In this document: positions 25,586-35,311 of the stretch, piece after piece
Numbering within the stretch: the first letter of the stretch is position 1
Layout of the letters: each line of letters starts with the position of its first letter
Source of the DNA: Bordetella parapertussis
Lineage (GTDB): Bacteria; Pseudomonadota; Gammaproteobacteria; Burkholderiales; SG8-41
Reading direction: 5' to 3'
DNA: 64,000 nucleotides
Assembly: GCA_945861275.1 (NCBI GenBank)
Contig: CAMATZ010000034.1
Coordinates: 2,651 to 66,650, forward strand
Translations under genes and position numbers: made by a program
Notes under the pieces: model-generated
Told to the model about the DNA's origin: nothing
The model's database searches: none
What the model saw: only the letters and a program-made list of their open reading frames with translations

Positions 25586-25677
25586 TTCAGGCAGTATGAG
25601 ATAGCCGTCGGCATGGTAAGCACAAGTCCTGCGCACATGGCATGCGGTCCGTCATCGCGGACATGAGAGGAGAACGC

Positions 25678-27048
25678 ATGCAACAGATCGGGAATCACGC
25701 GCGTCAGCGCGACAGGTTCGGCATTTCCCTGCGCTACAGCCTTGGGTTCGGATTGCCACTGACTGTTTGGTCGGGCGGTGTGCTGGCGGCAGCTGAGCTG
25801 CCGTCGGTGCTGGGCATACCGGTCGATTTCATCCTGTTTGCGCTTACGCTACTCGGCGTTGCGCTGTTTCACCACCACACACTGCGCGTTGCGCTGGTCG
25901 GGCTTGTCACCATCGTCGGCTACAAGCTGTTGTTTACCGGCTTCAAGACGGGTACTGGTGTCGCAGGCTTCGGCCTGCATATGGCGCACGAATGGGTGAT
26001 CCTGACTAATCTGCTGGGGCTGCTGCTCGGTTTTGCCATACTGTCCAAGCACTTCGAAGAGAGCAAAATTCCGGCGTGGCTGCCAAAGTTCCTGCCCGAC
26101 GACTGGAAGGGCGGCTTCGTGCTGCTGGTGATGATTTTTGTGCTGTCGAGTTTTCTCGACAACATCGCCGCAGCGATGATTGGCGGCACCATCGCGATGA
26201 CGGTGTTTCGCGGCAAGGTGCATATCGGTTATCTGGCGGCGATTGTCGCCGCGTCGAACGGCGGGGGATCAGGCAGCGTGGTGGGCGACACCACCACCAC
26301 GATGATGTGGATCGACGGCGTGAGCCCGGTGGCAGTGCTGACCGCCTACGTGGCGGCGGGTTTGGCGCTGGTGATATTCGGCATACCCGCTGCGTTCCAG
26401 CAACATAAATACTCGCCGATTACGAAAGAGGCCCCGCAGGGCATCGTCATTGATTGGGCGCGCGTGGGCATCGTCGCCTTCATTCTGGCGGCTGCCATCA
26501 TCGCCAACGTGATCGCGAACACGAAATTAGGTCATTTGAGCGACAAGTTTCCGTTCATCGGCGTGGCGGTGTGGATTGCCATTGCTATTGCCACGCCGCT
26601 GCGCAAGCCGGATTGGGGGCTGTTGCCTGAAGCGTTCAAGGGCAGCATTTTTCTGTTGTCGTTGATTCTGTGCGCCTCGCTGATGCCGGTGGAAAAACTG
26701 CCGCTTGCTTCGTGGCAGACCGCTTTCGGTCTAGGTTTCGTATCGGCGGTTTTCGATAACATTCCGCTCACCGCGCTGGCGCTGAAACAGGGCGGTTACG
26801 ATTGGGGCATGCTGGCGTACACGGTGGGATTCGGCGGCTCGATGATCTGGTTCGGCTCGTCAGCGGGCGTGGCGCTGTCGAACATGTTCCCCGAAGCTAG
26901 GTCCGTCGGAAACTGGATCAGACATGGCTGGCATGTGGCGCTGGCGTACGTCATCGGATTTTTCTTCATGTTGATGATCACCGGCTGGCAACCGACTGAG
27001 AAGATCAAAGGCGGCGTGGTCGTGCCTGCAGTTACACAGCCTAAATAG
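25678..27048 (+). CDS. NhaD-like Na+/H+ antiporter (ArsB/NhaD permease superfamily)
   Basis: ATG 25678 after GAGGAG. A polytopic membrane protein with ...[12 protein letters not shown]... and ...[14 protein letters not shown]... repeat motifs. The subfamily assignment is tentative. Confidence 0.6.
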
Positions 27049-27336: not shown

Positions 27337-28101
27337 ATGGAAATGTTAAGCGATCCGCTGTTCTGGGCGGCATTAGGCCAGATTACGTTGATCAATATTG
27401 TGCTGTCGGGCGATAACGCCGTGGTGATTGCGCTCGCGGCGCGTTCGTTGCCGGCGCATCAACAAAAGAAGGCTGTTATGTGGGGTGCGGGCGCTGCGGT
27501 GGTGATGCGGATTATCCTGACCATCATCGCAGTCGAGTTGCTGAAATGGCCTTATCTCAAGATCATTGGCGCGATTCTGTTGTTCTGGATCGCGGTCAAA
27601 TTGCTGGTGCCCGAACACGACGACGAAAACATAGAGAGTTCCGACAATTTGATGAAGGCGATCAAAACCATTCTGATTGCTGATTTGGTGATGAGTCTGG
27701 ACAATGTGATCGGTGTTGCAGCAGCGGCCAAGGGCGACGTCACCCTGCTGGTTATCGGATTGGCGATCTCGATCCCGCTGGTGGTTTTTGGCGCAACCAT
27801 GCTGATGAAAGTGATGGAAAAATGGCCGGTCATTATTACTATTGGCGCCGGGTTGCTGGGTTGGGTGGCGGGTGAAATGTTAATGACCGATCCGTTTTGG
27901 ATGGATTGGATCAATGCCCATTTATCGTGGCTGCACGTGCATATCTGGAAACTGGAATTCAGTTGGGTGCAGGTTGCTGGCGCGGCATTCGTTATTCTTT
28001 TCGGCAAATACCTGGCAACAAAAGCCGAAACGCATAGGGAAGTTGAACACAAGACGGTCGATCTCGCCGCGGGCGACCAGCACAACCGACCCGGCAAATA
28101 A
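27337..28101 (+). CDS. TerC-family integral membrane protein
   Basis: ...INIVLSGDNAVVIALAAR... and ...LVMSLDNVIGVAAAA..., the duplicated TerC motifs. Confidence 0.85.
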   Translation: MEMLSDPLFWAALGQITLINIVLSGDNAVVIALAARSLPAHQQKKAVMWGAGAAVVMRIILTIIAVELLKWPYLKIIGAILLFWIAVKLLVPEHDDENIESSDNLMKAIKTILIADLVMSLDNVIGVAAAAKGDVTLLVIGLAISIPLVVFGATMLMKVMEKWPVIITIGAGLLGWVAGEMLMTDPFWMDWINAHLSWLHVHIWKLEFSWVQVAGAAFVILFGKYLATKAETHREVEHKTVDLAAGDQHNRPGK

Positions 28102-28119: not shown

Positions 28120-28539
28120 ATGCTAAAGACACTGATACCCGTGGACGGCTCGGACAACTCCGTCCGGGCAGTTCAGTATTTGATGAAACAATCGGCAAAT
28201 TCAAGAGAGCCGTTTGAGATTCATCTGCTCAATGTGCAGCATCCGTTTCCCGGCACCATCAAGGGCGTCGGCGACCAAGCAAAGCAATACCACCACGACG
28301 AAGGCATCAAGGCGCTGGCGAATGCGCGTAAGCTGTTGGACGATGCCAAGGTTAAGTATTCGTATCACATCGGCGTCGGCGAAGTGGGCGAGGTGGTGGC
28401 GCACTTCGTTAAGGACTTAAAATGCGAGCAGGTCGTGATGGGCACGCGCGGCATGAATTCCATTGCCAACATGGTACTGGGATCGGGGGCAACGAAAGTG
28501 CTGCACCTGGTTGATGTGCCAGTGTTGTTGGTCAAGTAA
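28120..28539 (+). CDS. Universal stress protein (UspA family)
   Basis: MLKTLIPVDGSDNSVRAV...VVMGTRGMNSIANMVLGSGATKVLHLVDVPVLLVK. Confidence 0.85.
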   Translation: MLKTLIPVDGSDNSVRAVQYLMKQSANSREPFEIHLLNVQHPFPGTIKGVGDQAKQYHHDEGIKALANARKLLDDAKVKYSYHIGVGEVGEVVAHFVKDLKCEQVVMGTRGMNSIANMVLGSGATKVLHLVDVPVLLVK

Positions 28540-28601: not shown

Positions 28602-29873
28602 TCAATCTACTGCAGCTACAAACAATGCCGCCAATGCAGTGCCCACAGTGGCTGGCACACCGATGCGTTCCCACCACGAGGCGGGGGCGCCGGCGACTAC
28701 TTCCACGGGAACACGCGAGGTTTCCAGCACCTTGCTGGTGACCGAATCCTGAACGAACCGCGTGAGCGTGCTTTTGCGCGCGGTCCCCATCACGATCTGA
28801 TCGATGTGCAGACGCTGCGCCACGCGATCGATCACTGTTGCGGGATCGCCGAGTTCGATGTGAGAGGCGTGCGGTACACCATGCTTGTCGAGAAGCGCGC
28901 GTGCGCTTTTCAGTGCATTTTCCGCCAACTCGCGATGGTAACTATGCCGATTGCTCTTGCTAACGAAGCGAGAAACATACTGCGAAAACGGCGCACGTAC
29001 GTGGAGCAGATGCACTTCCATGTTTGAATCAGCCAGGAATTGATTGACCACATGCCGCACTGCCTGCAATGCACTTGCCGTTCCATCCACCGGTATTAGT
29101 ATTTTCTTCATGATGTTTTCTCCATTCAGGTTATTCGGCGCCACCCGGATGGGCGCGGCCGGTGCTGCTGCTAAATCCACAACATGAGCTGCTACGCGGC
29201 TGCGGGCTTGACCATGGTTCTTCCACAGACCTGCACCCAGCACGCCACCCATTGACGCTACGTAAACCAGTACGATGTAGTACCCCGCCGTTGCCGCATA
29301 GTCCCTGATGAGAGGCTCCCCCGTTATCATCTTGACGCCCGTCCATACCAGCACGCCGGCGCCGACATAGACAATGGCGGGATATTTCTGCACGTACTTG
29401 AGAATAAGCTGGCTGCCGCCGATCACAATGGGAATACTGATCAGCAGGCCCAGCACCACCAACAGAAAGCTCCCTTGCGCCGCGCCGGCAACTGCCAGGA
29501 CATTGTCGAGCCCCATCACGGCATCTGCGATCACGATGGTTTTCATCGCAGCCCAGAAATTGGTGGCAGAACTGAGCTTGTGCGCTTCGCTGTCGCTGTT
29601 ATCGATCAGCAGCTTGTAGGCGATCCACAACAGTGCAACACCGCCGGCCAGCAGTAGTCCGGGTATCTTGAGCAGCCATACCACCACCAACGTCATTGCC
29701 GAACGTACGACAATGGCGCCTACCGTCCCCCACACTATGGCTTTGGTGCGTAGATGATCCGGCAGATTACGCGCGGCCAGCGCAATTACGATGGCGTTAT
29801 CACCCGCCAGCACCAGATCAATGACTACGATGGCGAGCAGCGCCGAAAAAAACTCTGTTGAAAGTATTTCCAT
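28602..29873 (-). CDS. TerC-family membrane protein fused in frame to a universal stress protein domain and a C-terminal TM tail
   Basis: A single 423-aa ORF. The TerC motifs are DLVLAGDNAIVIALAAR and AVMGLDNVLAVAGAA. A linker follows, then MKKILIPVDGTASALQAV...IVMGTARKSTLTRFVQDSVTSKVL (USP), then WWERIGVPATVGTALAALFVAAV. Confidence 0.8.
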   Translation of the reverse strand: MEILSTEFFSALLAIVVIDLVLAGDNAIVIALAARNLPDHLRTKAIVWGTVGAIVVRSAMTLVVVWLLKIPGLLLAGGVALLWIAYKLLIDNSDSEAHKLSSATNFWAAMKTIVIADAVMGLDNVLAVAGAAQGSFLLVVLGLLISIPIVIGGSQLILKYVQKYPAIVYVGAGVLVWTGVKMITGEPLIRDYAATAGYYIVLVYVASMGGVLGAGLWKNHGQARSRVAAHVVDLAAAPAAPIRVAPNNLNGENIMKKILIPVDGTASALQAVRHVVNQFLADSNMEVHLLHVRAPFSQYVSRFVSKSNRHSYHRELAENALKSARALLDKHGVPHASHIELGDPATVIDRVAQRLHIDQIVMGTARKSTLTRFVQDSVTSKVLETSRVPVEVVAGAPASWWERIGVPATVGTALAALFVAAVD

Positions 29874-29956
29874 GTTGCGTGCCTCTTTTTCCGAATGCGT
29901 CCGTTATTCACGAATCCTTGCCGAGCGCAAACGGAGTGGTGATCCGCTATGCCCGG

Positions 29957-30056
29957 CCAAGGTCTCGCTCGTAACCGGAAAATCGCCGGCTACCAGCAGG
30001 ACCGGGGCTACTTGCCCGTGTTGACGATCCTGCTGCGGTAGAGCTACTCCCCTCGG
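29957..30056 (-). promoter_or_regulatory. yybP-ykoY (Mn2+) riboswitch-like aptamer in the leader of terC-usp
   Basis: The minus strand reads CCGAGGGGAGTAGC...ATCGTCAACACGGG...GCGAGACCTTGG. It has the invariant GGGGAGUAG (30052..30044) and GAGACC blocks. P1 pairs CCGAGG with CCTTGG and P2 pairs CTACCGCAGCAGGA with TCCTGCTGGTAG. The downstream gene is TerC, a classical regulon member. Confidence 0.7.
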
Positions 30057-30315
30057 TGAGGATTTTTCTGCCACACGATTGTGTTCATGCGGCGAGGTGA
30101 AGTATGGCGACACAAATCTCCGATGTGAAATGAAGAATAGTAATACAAGTTATTGATTTTATTAATGAAATTTGTAATTCGTAATGTTCGGCATGGCGTT
30201 TGCTGATGCATTGCATAGTGTAATAGTGCTGATCCCAAACCTTCATCAGGACGGGCATTGACGCTTTAACGCTCGCATGCAACACTCGCCGCGCGTTGGA
30301 AGCTCAACGCATCCT

Positions 30316-30442
30316 CCAAGGGGGAGTAGCTATCGCCGCCGGGTATTGCAAATACCTGGACTGTGACCGCTGAATCGTCAATACGGGAGCTTCGGCTTTC
30401 CGGTTCAGCAGGCAACCTCAACGTTGTTAGCGAGACCTTTGC
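30316..30442 (+). promoter_or_regulatory. Second yybP-ykoY (Mn2+) riboswitch-like aptamer, divergent from the first, upstream of the LysR gene
   Basis: CAAGGGGGAGTAGC (GGGGAGTAGC at 30321..30330) ...ATCGTCAATACGGG (30374..30387)... GCGAGACCTTTG (30430..30441). P1 pairs CAAGGG with CCTTTG. It shares the 14-mer ATCGTCAAYACGGG with the minus-strand copy. Confidence 0.65.
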
Positions 30443-30561
30443 CCAGGCAGGAAAAGGCCATAGCGGCCGTCAACCTGTCCGAGGTGAAGGCCGCCGTGCT
30501 CTCGCGTTTTCAGGCATGGCGAATCGCAACGTTTGTATATTTCAATACAAAGAGGATAGCC

Positions 30562-31497
30562 ATGCCCCAAAGCAAAATTCGCCGTTACCTGCGTCACGGA
30601 ATGTTGCCGCAACTCAGCGTGTTCGAGGCTGTGGCGCGGCTCGGAAGCTTTACTCGCGCCGGCGAGGAGTTGTATATGGCGCAACCTACGGTATCGGTGC
30701 AGATCAAGAAGCTTACCGAAACCATCGGCGCGCCGCTGTTGGAGCAGGTGGGCAAGACGGTTCGCATCACATCGGTAGGCAAGGAACTGCAAGCTGCAAG
30801 CAGTGAAATCTTTCAGGCATTGTCCCGATTTGAACAGAAGGTGGCGGACACGCGTGGTTTGCAAATAGGAACCCTTGATATTGCCGCGAGCACCGTGGCC
30901 AAATATTTCACCTCGCGCATGCTGGTTGATTTTGCAAAGGCTTACCCCGGCATCGAGGTGCGCATGTATGTCGGCCGCCAACAGTCATTGCTGGAGCGGA
31001 TCGCGGCGAATACCGATGATCTGTACTTGATGGCGAACCCGCCGGCGGGCGATGAGGTCGTGGCGCAGCGACTGCTGCCCAACCCCATCGTGGTTTTCGC
31101 CCACCGCGAGCACCGCCTTGCCGGACAGGCCAATATCCCGTTTGCGCGAATGGCCCAAGAACCGCTGCTCCTGCGCGAAGCGGGATCGGGAACACGCATG
31201 ACCACCGAGCGACTATTTCGCGAGCGTGGCATGACCCCATCCATACGCATGGAACTCGGCAGTAACGAAGCGATACGCGAGGCGCTGACCGCCGGATTGG
31301 GTGTGTCCATCATGTCGCGGCAGTCGGCGGGCGTGGATCTGGACGCCAACCTCACCACGCTCGATGTGGAGGGTTTTCCTATCGAGTCGTACTGGTATCT
31401 GGTTTATCCCGTAGGCAAACAGTTGTCGTTCATCGCACAGACCTTCCTCGATTTCGTACGCAAAGAAGCGCAGCGCCTGGAAGCGATTACTGCCTGA
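30562..31497 (+). CDS. LysR-family transcriptional regulator (CbbR-like N-terminus)
   Basis: ATG 30562 after AGAGGA. LPQLSVFEAVARLGSFTRAGEELYMAQPTVSVQIKKLTE is a LysR helix-turn-helix. Confidence 0.85.
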   Translation: MPQSKIRRYLRHGMLPQLSVFEAVARLGSFTRAGEELYMAQPTVSVQIKKLTETIGAPLLEQVGKTVRITSVGKELQAASSEIFQALSRFEQKVADTRGLQIGTLDIAASTVAKYFTSRMLVDFAKAYPGIEVRMYVGRQQSLLERIAANTDDLYLMANPPAGDEVVAQRLLPNPIVVFAHREHRLAGQANIPFARMAQEPLLLREAGSGTRMTTERLFRERGMTPSIRMELGSNEAIREALTAGLGVSIMSRQSAGVDLDANLTTLDVEGFPIESYWYLVYPVGKQLSFIAQTFLDFVRKEAQRLEAITA

Positions 31498-33122: not shown

Positions 33123-33614
33123 TTATTTATACTCGTGAATTCGCCCGGCATGCCCGCCTTCAGCACTGTGATGCTGACCTCCAGCACCGTGGCTACCATA
33201 GGCGCCCGCCTCCGGTTCAAATGGTGCACGCATCGGCGTCAGCGTCGCGCCCAAGCCTCTGAGCATTTCAGCGAGCACATGATCGGCGGCGATGCGCAGA
33301 AACCCGTCACCCACCTGCACCGGCACGTGGCGATTGCCGAGATGATACGCAGCACGCGCAAGTTCCGTCGCACTCATGCCGGCCACATGCAGCACATCTT
33401 CGATTTCCGCAACCACCGCGACCACGCGGCCATCGGCCGCCAGCAACAAATCACCGCCGCGCAAAATTTCTCCGCGCGGCAACATCAGCCACGCCTCCTC
33501 GCCGTCCACGAGCCGGGTGCGCAAGCGGCTTTTCTGACGCATGTCGAAAGGTAGCTTCAATTGCGCTTGTGCGGCGCTACCGCCGTCAGCCAGTTTGCTT
33601 TTGATCTCGATCAT
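33123..33614 (-). CDS. ureE: Urease accessory (nickel chaperone) protein
   Basis: ATG 33614 overlaps the ureC stop (ATGA). MIEIKSKL...[10 protein letters not shown]... is followed by a His-rich tail ([23 protein letters not shown]). Confidence 0.85.
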
Positions 33615-35311
33615 CAGAACAGAAAGTAACGTTGCGCCATCGGCAGCACTTTCGCCGGCTCGCACACCAGCAGTTCACCGTCGGCGCGCACTTCGTAGGT
33701 CTCGGCATCGACTTCGATTTTCGGCAGCCAGTCGTTCAGCACCATGTCTTTCTTGCCGATTTTTCTGACGTTGCGTATCGCTTGCAGCGGCTTTGACAAC
33801 CCCAGCGCCTCGATGGCCGGATTTTTCAGCGCCGCCTTCGACACAAACGTGAGCGAGGTGCGCAGCGCTTTGCCGAAACTGCCGAACATCGGACGGTAAT
33901 GCACCGGCTGCGGCGTCGGGATCGAGGCATTCGGATCGCCCATCGCCGCCGCGGCGATCATGCCGCCTTTGATGATCAGTGATGGCTTTACGCCAAAGAA
34001 TGCCGGCTTCCACAACACCAGATCAGCCAGTTTTCCTTCAGTGATGGAGCCAACGACGTGCGACACGCCATGCGCAATCGCGGGATTAATCGTGTATTTT
34101 GCAATAAAGCGCTTCACGCGCGCGTTATCATTTTCTTTCGGGTCGCCCTTCAGGCTGCCGCGCTGCATTTTCATTTTGTGCGCGGTCTGCCAGGTGCGGA
34201 TGATGACTTCCCCCACGCGCCCCATCGCCTGCGAATCGGACGACATCATCGAAAACGCGCCCAGATCATGCAGAATATCCTCGGCGGCGATGGTTTCCTT
34301 GCGGATGCGTGATTCGGCAAACGCCACGTCTTCGGCAATCGCCGGGTCAAGGTGATGGCACACCATCAGCATATCGAGATGCTCGGCGATCGTGTTGACC
34401 GTGTACGGCATGGTTGGATTGGTTGACGACGGCATCACATTCGGCTCGCCGCACACCTTGATGATATCCGGCGCATGGCCGCCGCCCGCGCCCTCGGTGT
34501 GAAAGGTGCAGATCGCCCGGCCCTTCATCGCCGCCACCGAGGTTTCCACAAACCCCGATTCGTTCAAGGTATCCGTGTGGATCGCCACCTGCACGTCCAT
34601 CCTGTCGGCGACCGACAGGCAGTTGTCTATGGCTGCTGGCGTGGTGCCCCAGTCTTCATGCAGTTTCAGGCCGATGGCGCCGGCTTCGATTTGTTCTTTG
34701 AGCGGCGCGGGCTTGCTGGCATTGCCCTTGCCTAAAAAACCCAGGTTCATCGGAAACGCATCCGCGGCGGCCAGCATGGCATGCAGATGCCATGGCCCCG
34801 GCGTGCAGGTGGTAGCGAAGGTGCCGGTGGCAGGTCCGGTGCCGCCGCCGATCATGGTGGTCACGCCCGACATCAAGGCCTCTTCGATTTGCTGCGGGCA
34901 AATAAAATGAATGTGCGTGTCGATGCCGCCGGCGGTAACGATCATGCCTTCGCCCGCGATGATTTCCGTGCCCGCGCCGATGGGGATGGTGATGCCGGGC
35001 TGGATGTCGGGATTGCCTGCCTTGCCGATTTTCCAGAGGTGACCGTTCTTGATGCCGATGTCAGCCTTGACGATGCCCCAGTGATCCACGATCAAGGCAT
35101 TGGTGATCACCGTGTCCGCCACTTTCGCGGAAACCAGTTGGCTCTGCCCCATGCCATCGCGGATGACCTTGCCGCCGCCGAATTTCACCTCTTCGCCGTA
35201 AAGGGTGTAGTCCTTTTCGACTTCGATCCACAGTTCGGTATCGGCGAGGCGCACGCGATCACCGGTGGTGGGTCCGAACATTTCGGCGTAGGCCTGGCGG
35301 GTGATTTTCAT
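33614..35311 (-). CDS. ureC: Urease alpha subunit
   Basis: [25 protein letters not shown]...[14 protein letters not shown]...MVCHHL.... Confidence 0.95.

Follow-up and report, generated by a model that had tools for sequence, protein, structure and literature searches.

Can a manganese riboswitch govern the synthesis of a transcription factor? The question is raised by a single intergenic region in a 64,000-nucleotide (nt) stretch of bacterial DNA, hereafter the window, which is taken from contig CAMATZ010000034.1 of an assembly filed under Bordetella parapertussis (GCA_945861275.1). In this region, two RNA elements that resemble the Mn2+-sensing yybP-ykoY aptamer lie back to back. One is transcribed towards a gene for a TerC-family membrane protein fused to a universal stress protein (Usp) domain, terC-usp, and the other towards a gene for a LysR-type transcriptional regulator, lysR. 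We call them the minus copy and the plus copy after the strand of the aptamer, and all coordinates are positions within the window. Reviews and a regulon survey report only transporters as targets of Mn2+ riboswitches (PMC8632737, PMC3766115, PMC11672702). The yybP-ykoY aptamer consists of P1/P2 and P3/P4 helical stacks round a four-way junction, with metal pockets in loops L1 and L3 (PMC11087558), and an adenosine of L3, A41, contacts Mn2+ through its N7 (PMC11672702). The published switch acts by antitermination, with a terminator that competes with the outer helix for its 3' strand (PMC11087558). Here, we find that both elements are bona fide aptamers of this class, by sequence, by structure and by an independent covariance model, and we infer that Mn2+ is the ligand of both. 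Taken as a whole, it is probable that both serve as Mn2+-class leaders and that the plus copy acts as an ON switch for lysR in a clade of uncultured Betaproteobacteria, within a circuit that we propose below.

The three conserved blocks of the class are present on both strands where the initial annotation had placed them. They are GGGGAGTAGCT ... GATCGTCAACACGGG ... AGCGAGACCTTGG in the minus copy, where the strand reads CCGAGGGGAGUAGCU...GAUCGUCAACACGGG...AGCGAGACCUUGG from 30056 to 29957, and GGGGAGTAGCT ... AATCGTCAATACGGG ... AGCGAGACCTTTG in the plus copy, which reads CAAGGGGGAGUAGCU...AAUCGUCAAUACGGG...AGCGAGACCUUUG from 30316 to 30442. Folding confirms the accompanying proposal of a P1 helix, formed in each copy by the bases on either side of the blocks, while the 14-mer said to be shared is near-identical, with one position that differs (C/T). 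The individual folds have a common layout, composed of P1, an internal loop L1 (GGAGUA + GAGA), a short helix P1.1, the junction, a long hairpin interrupted on one side by a 7-nt UCAAYAC bulge that corresponds to L3, and a P4 hairpin. The conserved L1 strands, GGGGAGUAG on the 5' side and GAGACC on the 3' side, lie between P1 and P1.1 in both copies. In the plus copy, P1 is formed by segments 30317-30322 and 30436-30441, L3 is UCAAUAC (30378-30384), and an extra hairpin, P2, gives a four-way junction. The minus copy, in which L3 is UCAACAC (30024-30018), has no P2 and thus a three-way junction; its minimum free energy (MFE) is -50.6 kcal/mol, with a z-score of -3.9. The first A of L3, at 30380 in the plus copy and 30022 in the minus copy, is the candidate equivalent of A41 in the L. 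lactis numbering.

The independent model, named R1, was made from aligned aptamers of other genomes. From 91 non-redundant pattern matches, 21 sequences without P2 and of consistent length were chosen as the seed, and the consensus structure was derived with RNAalifold. It comprises 30 pairs in 5 helices and is 85% paired, and 24 of the pairs show compensatory double changes. The observed covariation values were reached by 0 of 500 shuffles and no slid register came close. Helices P1 and P1.1 covary in the 91 members as well as in the 21-member seed. When RNAalifold was applied to the raw MAFFT alignment of all 91 sequences, it returned P1 and P1.1 only, with the variable hairpins misaligned, and the length-homogeneous seed was used instead. 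P2 is missing in 21 of the 91 sampled members, including examples from Bacillales and Acholeplasma. A scan of the whole window with R1 gives exactly two sites, the two aptamers listed in Table 1, and nothing else; the plus copy has the lower score because its P2 insertion is absent from the seed. The covariance model also recovered loci L127-L132, in which L3 is UCAUUAC or UCAAUUC and which a strict three-block regular expression had missed.

The initial annotation had expected two matches to the Rfam model of the class, RF00080, above its gathering threshold. With cmscan and Rfam 15, there is no match in the window at that threshold (45 bits), and none in 29850-30620 even at E<=10, a result that taken by itself speaks against the assignment and that is explained by a positive control. 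For the control set, species-representative genomes supplied 120 loci in which the three blocks occur at variable spacing, and 15 of these were submitted to cmscan. RF00080, a model of 177 positions in which the P1 pairing is unannotated, matched 6 of the 15, and among the control loci it recognises only the mntP-type subtype 'GUCAACACACUU...AUGGCG'. The window copies belong to the 'UCGUCAAYACGGG...CCCGG' subtype, for which 0 of 9 control loci were matched (L008, L026, L041, L051, L066, L067, L070, L080 and L082). The missed loci include examples from Bacillales (Paenisporosarcina) and Acholeplasma. Because the model misses this subtype entirely in the control, the absence of an RF00080 match is uninformative here, and it was rejected as proof that no aptamer is present. 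In practice, automated annotation will overlook these switches for as long as the current RF00080 misses the whole subtype.

The association of the plus copy with lysR is widely conserved. Pfam domains bear out the annotation of the downstream gene, with its ATG at 30562, as a LysR-type regulator, with HTH_1 at the N-terminus and LysR_substrate at the C-terminus. No NCBIfam equivalog model scores above its cutoff, and the highest-scoring one, CbbR, gives 202 bits vs a cutoff of 450. The relatives of this LysR form more than 120 clusters at an identity of at least 59%, all of them metagenomic. In a first survey, based on orthologues found by protein similarity, 8 of the 9 loci with enough upstream DNA have a plus-strand aptamer that ends about 100-130 nt short of the start codon, and the four metagenome loci L138-L141 have the same lysR-leader aptamer. 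A wider profile search gave 196 LysR relatives, the best 80 of which, with identities of 53-89%, were kept, and the aptamer was counted in the 77 of these loci whose upstream sequence extends over 450 nt or more. R1 detects a lysR-leader aptamer in 74 of the 77, always on the lysR strand, at a distance of 31-176 nt from the gene (median 110). The carriers are metagenome-assembled genomes (MAGs) of uncultured Betaproteobacteria, Burkholderiales, Rhodocyclaceae or Nitrosomonadales. The scores of these aptamers span 29-63 bits, a range that includes the window copy at 40.8, and 45 of the 74 loci have both divergent copies.

This linkage rejects, for the clade, one of the two readings initially offered for the plus copy, namely an orphan aptamer left behind by a rearrangement. 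Moreover, the aptamers themselves show strong covariation. Fourteen LysR-linked copies aligned alone give the four-way structure, with 94.7% of cells paired and double changes at 21 of 36 pairs, spread across P2, P3.1, P3.2 and P4. All four helices of the plus copy show compensatory changes across relatives, and the L3 GUCA is invariant in 14 of 14 copies. Judged from the sequences, the plus form with P2 and the minus form without it are old separate lineages and not the product of a recent inverted duplication, because each has been kept across the clade. Two irregular loci were also noted. In L070 (3432-4268, plus strand), the LysR orthologue has 279 amino acids, with about 32 residues of the helix-turn-helix missing through a genuine deletion or an artefact of assembly. 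In L210 (about 918-1500), a rearranged remnant runs from a truncated TerC open reading frame (ORF) into the 3' half of a plus aptamer (GAGCGAGACCTTTGCC...), and an intact copy is lacking.

The plus copy could act on lysR only if it is transcribed with the gene. The predicted lysR promoter is kept as TTGACN-N17-NANANT in the intergenic alignment of relatives. In 27 of 70 loci, promoter-like hexamers that score at least 8/12 precede the aptamer by 25-42 nt, and no such match occurs in any of the 70 aptamer-lysR spacers. Because of this distribution, the aptamer most likely belongs to the lysR mRNA, as its 5' leader. In 69 of 74 lysR leaders, a hairpin uses the 3' strand of P1 as its 5' arm (GAGACCUUUGCC-loop-GGCAAAGGUCU), and in 40 of the 74 the stem is followed directly by at least 5 U. 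The stem energies in relatives range from -14 to -21 kcal/mol. In the nearest relatives of the window, L124 (89%) and L138 (84%), the stem has -19.1 kcal/mol and a U-tract, and in L070 a 10-bp stem is followed by U7. In the clade, the P1 3' strand would thus, without Mn2+, become the 5' arm of an intrinsic terminator, and with Mn2+ the docking of L1 and L3 would stabilise P1 and allow read-through into lysR, as in a classic ON antiterminator. There is also a second leader hairpin, located 3' of the terminator, with the arms GGCCUUYRCC/GGURAAGGCC in relatives (L070, L124-L133). Its 5' arm mimics the P1 3' strand of the aptamer and its 3' arm could therefore pair with either.

On the other side of the region, the minus copy precedes a TerC-family gene, as had been claimed. 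The protein is assigned by Pfam to TerC (3.4e-48) and Usp (2.9e-23), and by NCBIfam to TIGR03717, R_switched_YjbE, with 224.8 bits vs a cutoff of 134.8; the ATG is at 29873 on the minus strand. The minus copy would accordingly control a TerC-family protein of Mn2+ export or metalation that is fused to Usp. In the terC-usp leader, which has GAGG as its Shine-Dalgarno (SD) sequence, a hairpin without a U-tract competes for the P1 3' strand. The leaders of relatives have the same competing-hairpin layout and none has a U-tract, which suggests translational or Rho-dependent control; the competing hairpin is probably the means of it. Translational or Rho-dependent riboswitch control has been reported for E. 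coli mntP (PMC11647493).

The two genes are transcribed divergently from one shared promoter region of about 250 nt, and this divergon is conserved among relatives. The GTGAAATGAAGA block at the predicted terC-usp promoter is kept across the intergenic alignment, and both candidate LysR-binding dyads are directly upstream of the terC-usp -35 element. Over 70 loci, the dyad GTAAT-N7-ATTAC, matched at 8/10 or better, occurs at 1.23 sites per locus vs 0.09 in composition-matched shuffles, about 14-fold, with the motif derived from 9 of the 70 scored loci and the shuffles mononucleotide only, which tempers the comparison. In about eight species (L166, L179, L180, L187, L190, L204, L206 and L221), the aptamer is found on lysR only; terC-usp is still divergent in these species and the GAAATGAAGA/dyad block is kept (about 950-1300 per locus). 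Whatever Mn2+ signal reaches terC-usp in these species would have to pass via LysR.

From these elements a circuit can be proposed. LysR, once made, would most likely bind the conserved GTAAT-N7-ATTAC dyads beside the terC-usp -35 element, and bound LysR would modulate terC-usp and probably its own gene too. Regulation of terC-usp by LysR is the simplest model because it is the usual geometry of an LTTR (LysR-type transcriptional regulator) and its divergent target; we regard it as having nearly an even chance. Mn2+ would then act twice on terC-usp, in a coherent feed-forward loop, and where terC-usp has lost its own aptamer, Mn2+ would act only through LysR, in a pure cascade. The composite proposal, in which a Mn2+ riboswitch gates LysR synthesis and LysR controls a terC-usp gene that usually carries the same riboswitch, is put forward tentatively, as somewhat short of an even chance. 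At clade level, the reading of the locus as a riboswitch-to-regulator cascade, the other of the two initially offered, is thus favoured by the 74/77 linkage, the covariation, the upstream promoter and the terminator that overlaps P1, but its second step, from LysR to terC-usp, is conjectural and in the window itself the terminator is disrupted.

The lysR leader of this genome has indeed been remodelled. Relative to L124, a 7-nt deletion takes out the U-tract, two substitutions (GGCAAAGGUC to GGAAAAGGCC) break the stem, and the downstream segment is substituted and 8 nt longer (...GCUCUCGCGUUUUCAGGCAUGG... vs ...GCUUUUGUGCGCGG...). The remodelled sequence is identical in the independent assemblies L001 and L003. 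The aptamer differs from that of L124 only in structure-neutral ways, by G-U wobbles and changes in the variable P2 loop. An alternative long hairpin (30430-30505), which excludes P1/P1.1, forms in the minimum-energy fold of the whole leader: the free fold has -112.1 kcal/mol vs -102.8 with the aptamer enforced, a difference of 9.3 kcal/mol with no ligand. The window lineage has a UCUCGC-GUUUUC segment of its own, in which UCUCGC is complementary to the invariant GCGAGA and forms the closing stem with it; the alternative hairpin is a possible substitute terminator. The new lineage-specific segment also supplies GGCAUGGC, which pairs with the start-codon region of lysR. The lysR SD, AAGAGGA, is at 30550-30556, and the AUG is sequestered, with a probability of being unpaired of 0.01-0.02 with or without the aptamer enforced. 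Mn2+ control of lysR in this genome may be kept in an altered form or weakened; a rebuilt platform and a switch that is being lost in this lineage look the same in silico. On the opposite strand, inside the lysR leader, there is a terminator-like site (30456-30468, minus strand; GGCCGCTATGGCC then TTTTCC), which as the reverse complement of the remodelled region is probably incidental.

Several points weigh against the plus copy as a working Mn2+ switch of lysR and against the circuit. In the clade, no cultured carrier was found among the 196 LysR relatives, and all carriers are uncultured MAGs. Two of the 21 R1 seeds (L107 and L117) are LysR-linked aptamers from distant relatives. The competing stem lacks a U-tract in 29 of 74 lysR leaders, so that the mode of control is not uniform, and across the window the dyad has 18 matches vs 13.8 expected, which is not an enrichment. 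In the window leader, the residual terminator stem has only -4.9 kcal/mol and no U-tract, and the substitute hairpin has 4 U only and a 9-nt internal loop. Translational coupling was considered for this leader and rejected, since the accessibility of SD and AUG is equal in both aptamer states. The points from the window leader could mean that the intact plus aptamer is here a functional relic, uncoupled by the loss of its terminator, with lysR expressed constitutively and held down by an unchanging hairpin at the start codon; the switch would be real in the clade and would have ceased to operate in the window lineage. The contrast in stem energy with L124 and L138, the deletion and two stem mismatches shared identically by L001 and L003, and an AUG sequestered whatever the aptamer does all fit such a relic, as does the rarity of leaders in which the competing stem is missing (5 of 74). 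A relic, however, would hardly be expected to keep an aptamer whose differences from L124 are all structure-preserving and whose score is within the clade range, nor to gain a lineage-specific UCUCGC that pairs the invariant GCGAGA, is followed by GUUUUC and builds a P1-excluding hairpin that is the free-energy minimum. A similar long-range pairing is found in L163. We regard the relic as unlikely.

Two further explanations depart from the ON switch in the clade as a whole. The plus aptamer and its terminator might constitute a separate short Mn2+-responsive transcript, a small RNA (sRNA) or decoy, with lysR expressed from a promoter of its own in the spacer. The spacer is long enough to invite this thought, with its median of 110 nt and two further conserved hairpins, but promoter-like matches are found just upstream of the aptamer and in no spacer, the aptamer always shares the strand of lysR and keeps within a narrow range of distances from it, and the terminator is designed as in the standard ON switches of downstream genes (PMC11087558). 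This makes a separate transcript very improbable. Alternatively, the yybP-ykoY fold might sense another cation or a combined signal, such as Ca2+, or pH together with Mn2+, and the circuit would not be one of manganese. A Ca2+ response of the S. pneumoniae mgtA member and a coupling of the E. coli alx member to alkaline pH have been described (PMC11672702, PMC12934788), and a wider role in stress is hinted at by the Usp fusion. Against another signal, the L1 and L3 blocks of the metal pocket are invariant, including the L3 UCA in 14 of 14 LysR-linked copies, and the associated gene is a TerC of the riboswitch-linked YjbE type; we give this explanation hardly any weight. An Mn2+-class ON switch for lysR in the clade remains the reading that we prefer.

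Table 1 Features of the terC-usp/lysR intergenic region and its flanking genes.
Feature	Coordinates	Strand	Basis or detail
terC-usp: TerC (YjbE-type) membrane domain + universal stress protein domain, 423 aa	28602..29873	-	Pfam, NCBIfam
terC-usp leader 3' of aptamer; hairpin competing for P1 3' strand (ACCUUGGCCGGG / CUCGGCAAGG)	29874..29952	-	whole-leader fold
Mn2+ (yybP-ykoY class) aptamer, three-way-junction form without P2	29953..30060	-	R1 77.0 bits, E 3e-17
Predicted sigma-70 promoter of terC-usp, TTCACA-N17-CATACT, within conserved GTGAAATGAAGA block	30101..30129	-	promoter scan
Candidate LysR-binding dyad GTAAT-N7-ATTGA	30140-30156	.	intergenic alignment
Weaker candidate LysR-binding dyad GTAAT-N7-CATGG	30181-30197	.	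intergenic alignment
Predicted lysR promoter TTGACG-N17-AACACT	30258..30286	+	ends ~27 nt before aptamer; hexamer score 8/12
Mn2+ (yybP-ykoY class) aptamer, canonical four-way-junction form	30313..30445	+	R1 40.8 bits, E 6e-8; fold
Alternative long hairpin GCGAGACCUUUGCC.../...GGUGAAGG...UCUCGC, then GUUUUC	30430..30511	+	MFE folds
Canonical terminator remnant GACCUUUGCC-CAGGCA-GGAAAAGGCC	30434..30459	+	two mismatches, U-tract deleted
Second conserved leader hairpin, GCGGCC...GGCCGC	30463..30494	+	present in all aligned leaders
Start-codon hairpin GGCAUGGC (30513-30520) / GCCAUGCC (30559-30566)	30513..30566	+	folds
lysR: LysR-type transcriptional regulator, 311 aa	30562..31497	+	HTH_1 (PF00126) 2.2e-18, LysR_substrate (PF03466) 1.1e-47

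Beyond the divergon, the window has a TerC paralogue of the YjbE type (27337-28101; TIGR03717, 233.6 bits), followed by a separate Usp gene (28120-28539), both on the plus strand and convergent with terC-usp; split and fused TerC/Usp versions are found side by side in the clade. Upstream of this pair there is neither an aptamer, by R1, nor a dyad motif. The initial annotation was thus right that the paralogue has no aptamer, a fact that has no bearing on the orphan question for which it had been cited. The dyad was also considered as a marker of LysR control over the paralogue and rejected, there being no match upstream and no window-wide enrichment. Between the FTHFS gene and the paralogue lies an ORF of 468 amino acids (25642-27048, plus strand) with no Pfam match and weak NhaD-like NCBIfam matches; its orthologue in L124 sits 3' of lysR instead. 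Furthermore, a match of 119 bits to RF02514 (5' ureB sRNA) at 34879-35165 on the plus strand lies antisense within the urease alpha-subunit ORF (33614-35311, minus strand), and probably reflects conservation of the coding sequence and not an sRNA gene.

How unusual is a transcription factor gene behind an aptamer of this class? For 121 aptamers sampled across phyla, the downstream gene was called by merging 'first ORF' and 'longest ORF' assignments, each of which alone miscalled some GC-rich loci. As the first gene after the aptamer, TerC occurs 35 times, GDT1/UPF0016 22 times, MntP 11 times, a P-type ATPase about 7 times and LysR 5 times. LysR is thus the fifth commonest class (5/121), and all five cases come from the same betaproteobacterial group. 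ORFs with a Pkinase domain follow 3 of the 121 aptamers, as another class of non-transporter target. The initial annotation knew of no established case of this riboswitch class in control of a transcription factor, and full-text literature searches, whose coverage did not extend to the gene-association tables of the founding papers, likewise found none. The pairing of a Mn2+ riboswitch with lysR is apparently undescribed, and is apparently conserved in about 74 uncultured betaproteobacterial species. Three features are unusual: a transcription factor gene behind the riboswitch, a further copy of the riboswitch on the probable target of that factor, and conservation of the arrangement in at least 74 species seen only in metagenomes.

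If the proposed circuit holds, it would be the first cascade from a Mn2+ riboswitch to a regulator, and a metal sensor that acts in cis would be extended into a regulon that acts in trans. The second copy, on the likely target of LysR, would add feed-forward logic, that is, a delay and a filter. A large LysR subfamily of uncultured Betaproteobacteria would be defined as a manganese-stress regulator, which gives a testable function to a widespread subfamily so far seen only in metagenomes.

Compared with the known yybP-ykoY riboswitches, which include L. lactis yoaB, E. coli mntP and alx, and B. subtilis yybP and ykoY/meeY, the elements described here have the same L1 (GGGGAGUAG/GAGACC) and L3 (GUCAAYAC) blocks, the same P1/P1.1 leg, P3 hairpin with one-sided bulge, and P4, to which the plus copy adds P2. 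The terminator of most relatives uses the outer-helix 3' strand, as in the known members, and the TerC target of the minus copy matches those of B. subtilis ykoY and E. coli alx. They differ in that the gene behind the plus copy encodes a transcription factor and not a transporter, and in that two copies diverge round one promoter region. The minus copy moreover lacks P2, the terminator is remodelled in the window, and the subtype escapes the current Rfam model. As a riboswitch in the leader of a regulator gene, and hence a cascade from an RNA sensor to a regulator, the plus copy has a precedent in the Vibrio cholerae Vc2 riboswitch for cyclic di-GMP, which sits upstream of the regulator gene tfoY (bioRxiv 10.1101/617340, PMC7371385). 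Vc2, however, is an OFF switch for a second messenger and not for a metal ion, its regulator is of another family, and no second riboswitch copy is known on the presumed target of the regulator. The arrangement also resembles that of LTTR divergons in general. In these, the LTTR gene is divergent from its target and the protein binds interrupted dyads upstream of the -35 element of the target. The present locus has the same divergent order, the same HTH_1 and LysR_substrate domains, and N7 dyads as candidate sites beside the terC-usp -35 element. It departs from them in that the literal T-N11-A consensus is not matched and, above all, in that the mRNA of the LTTR itself carries a riboswitch.

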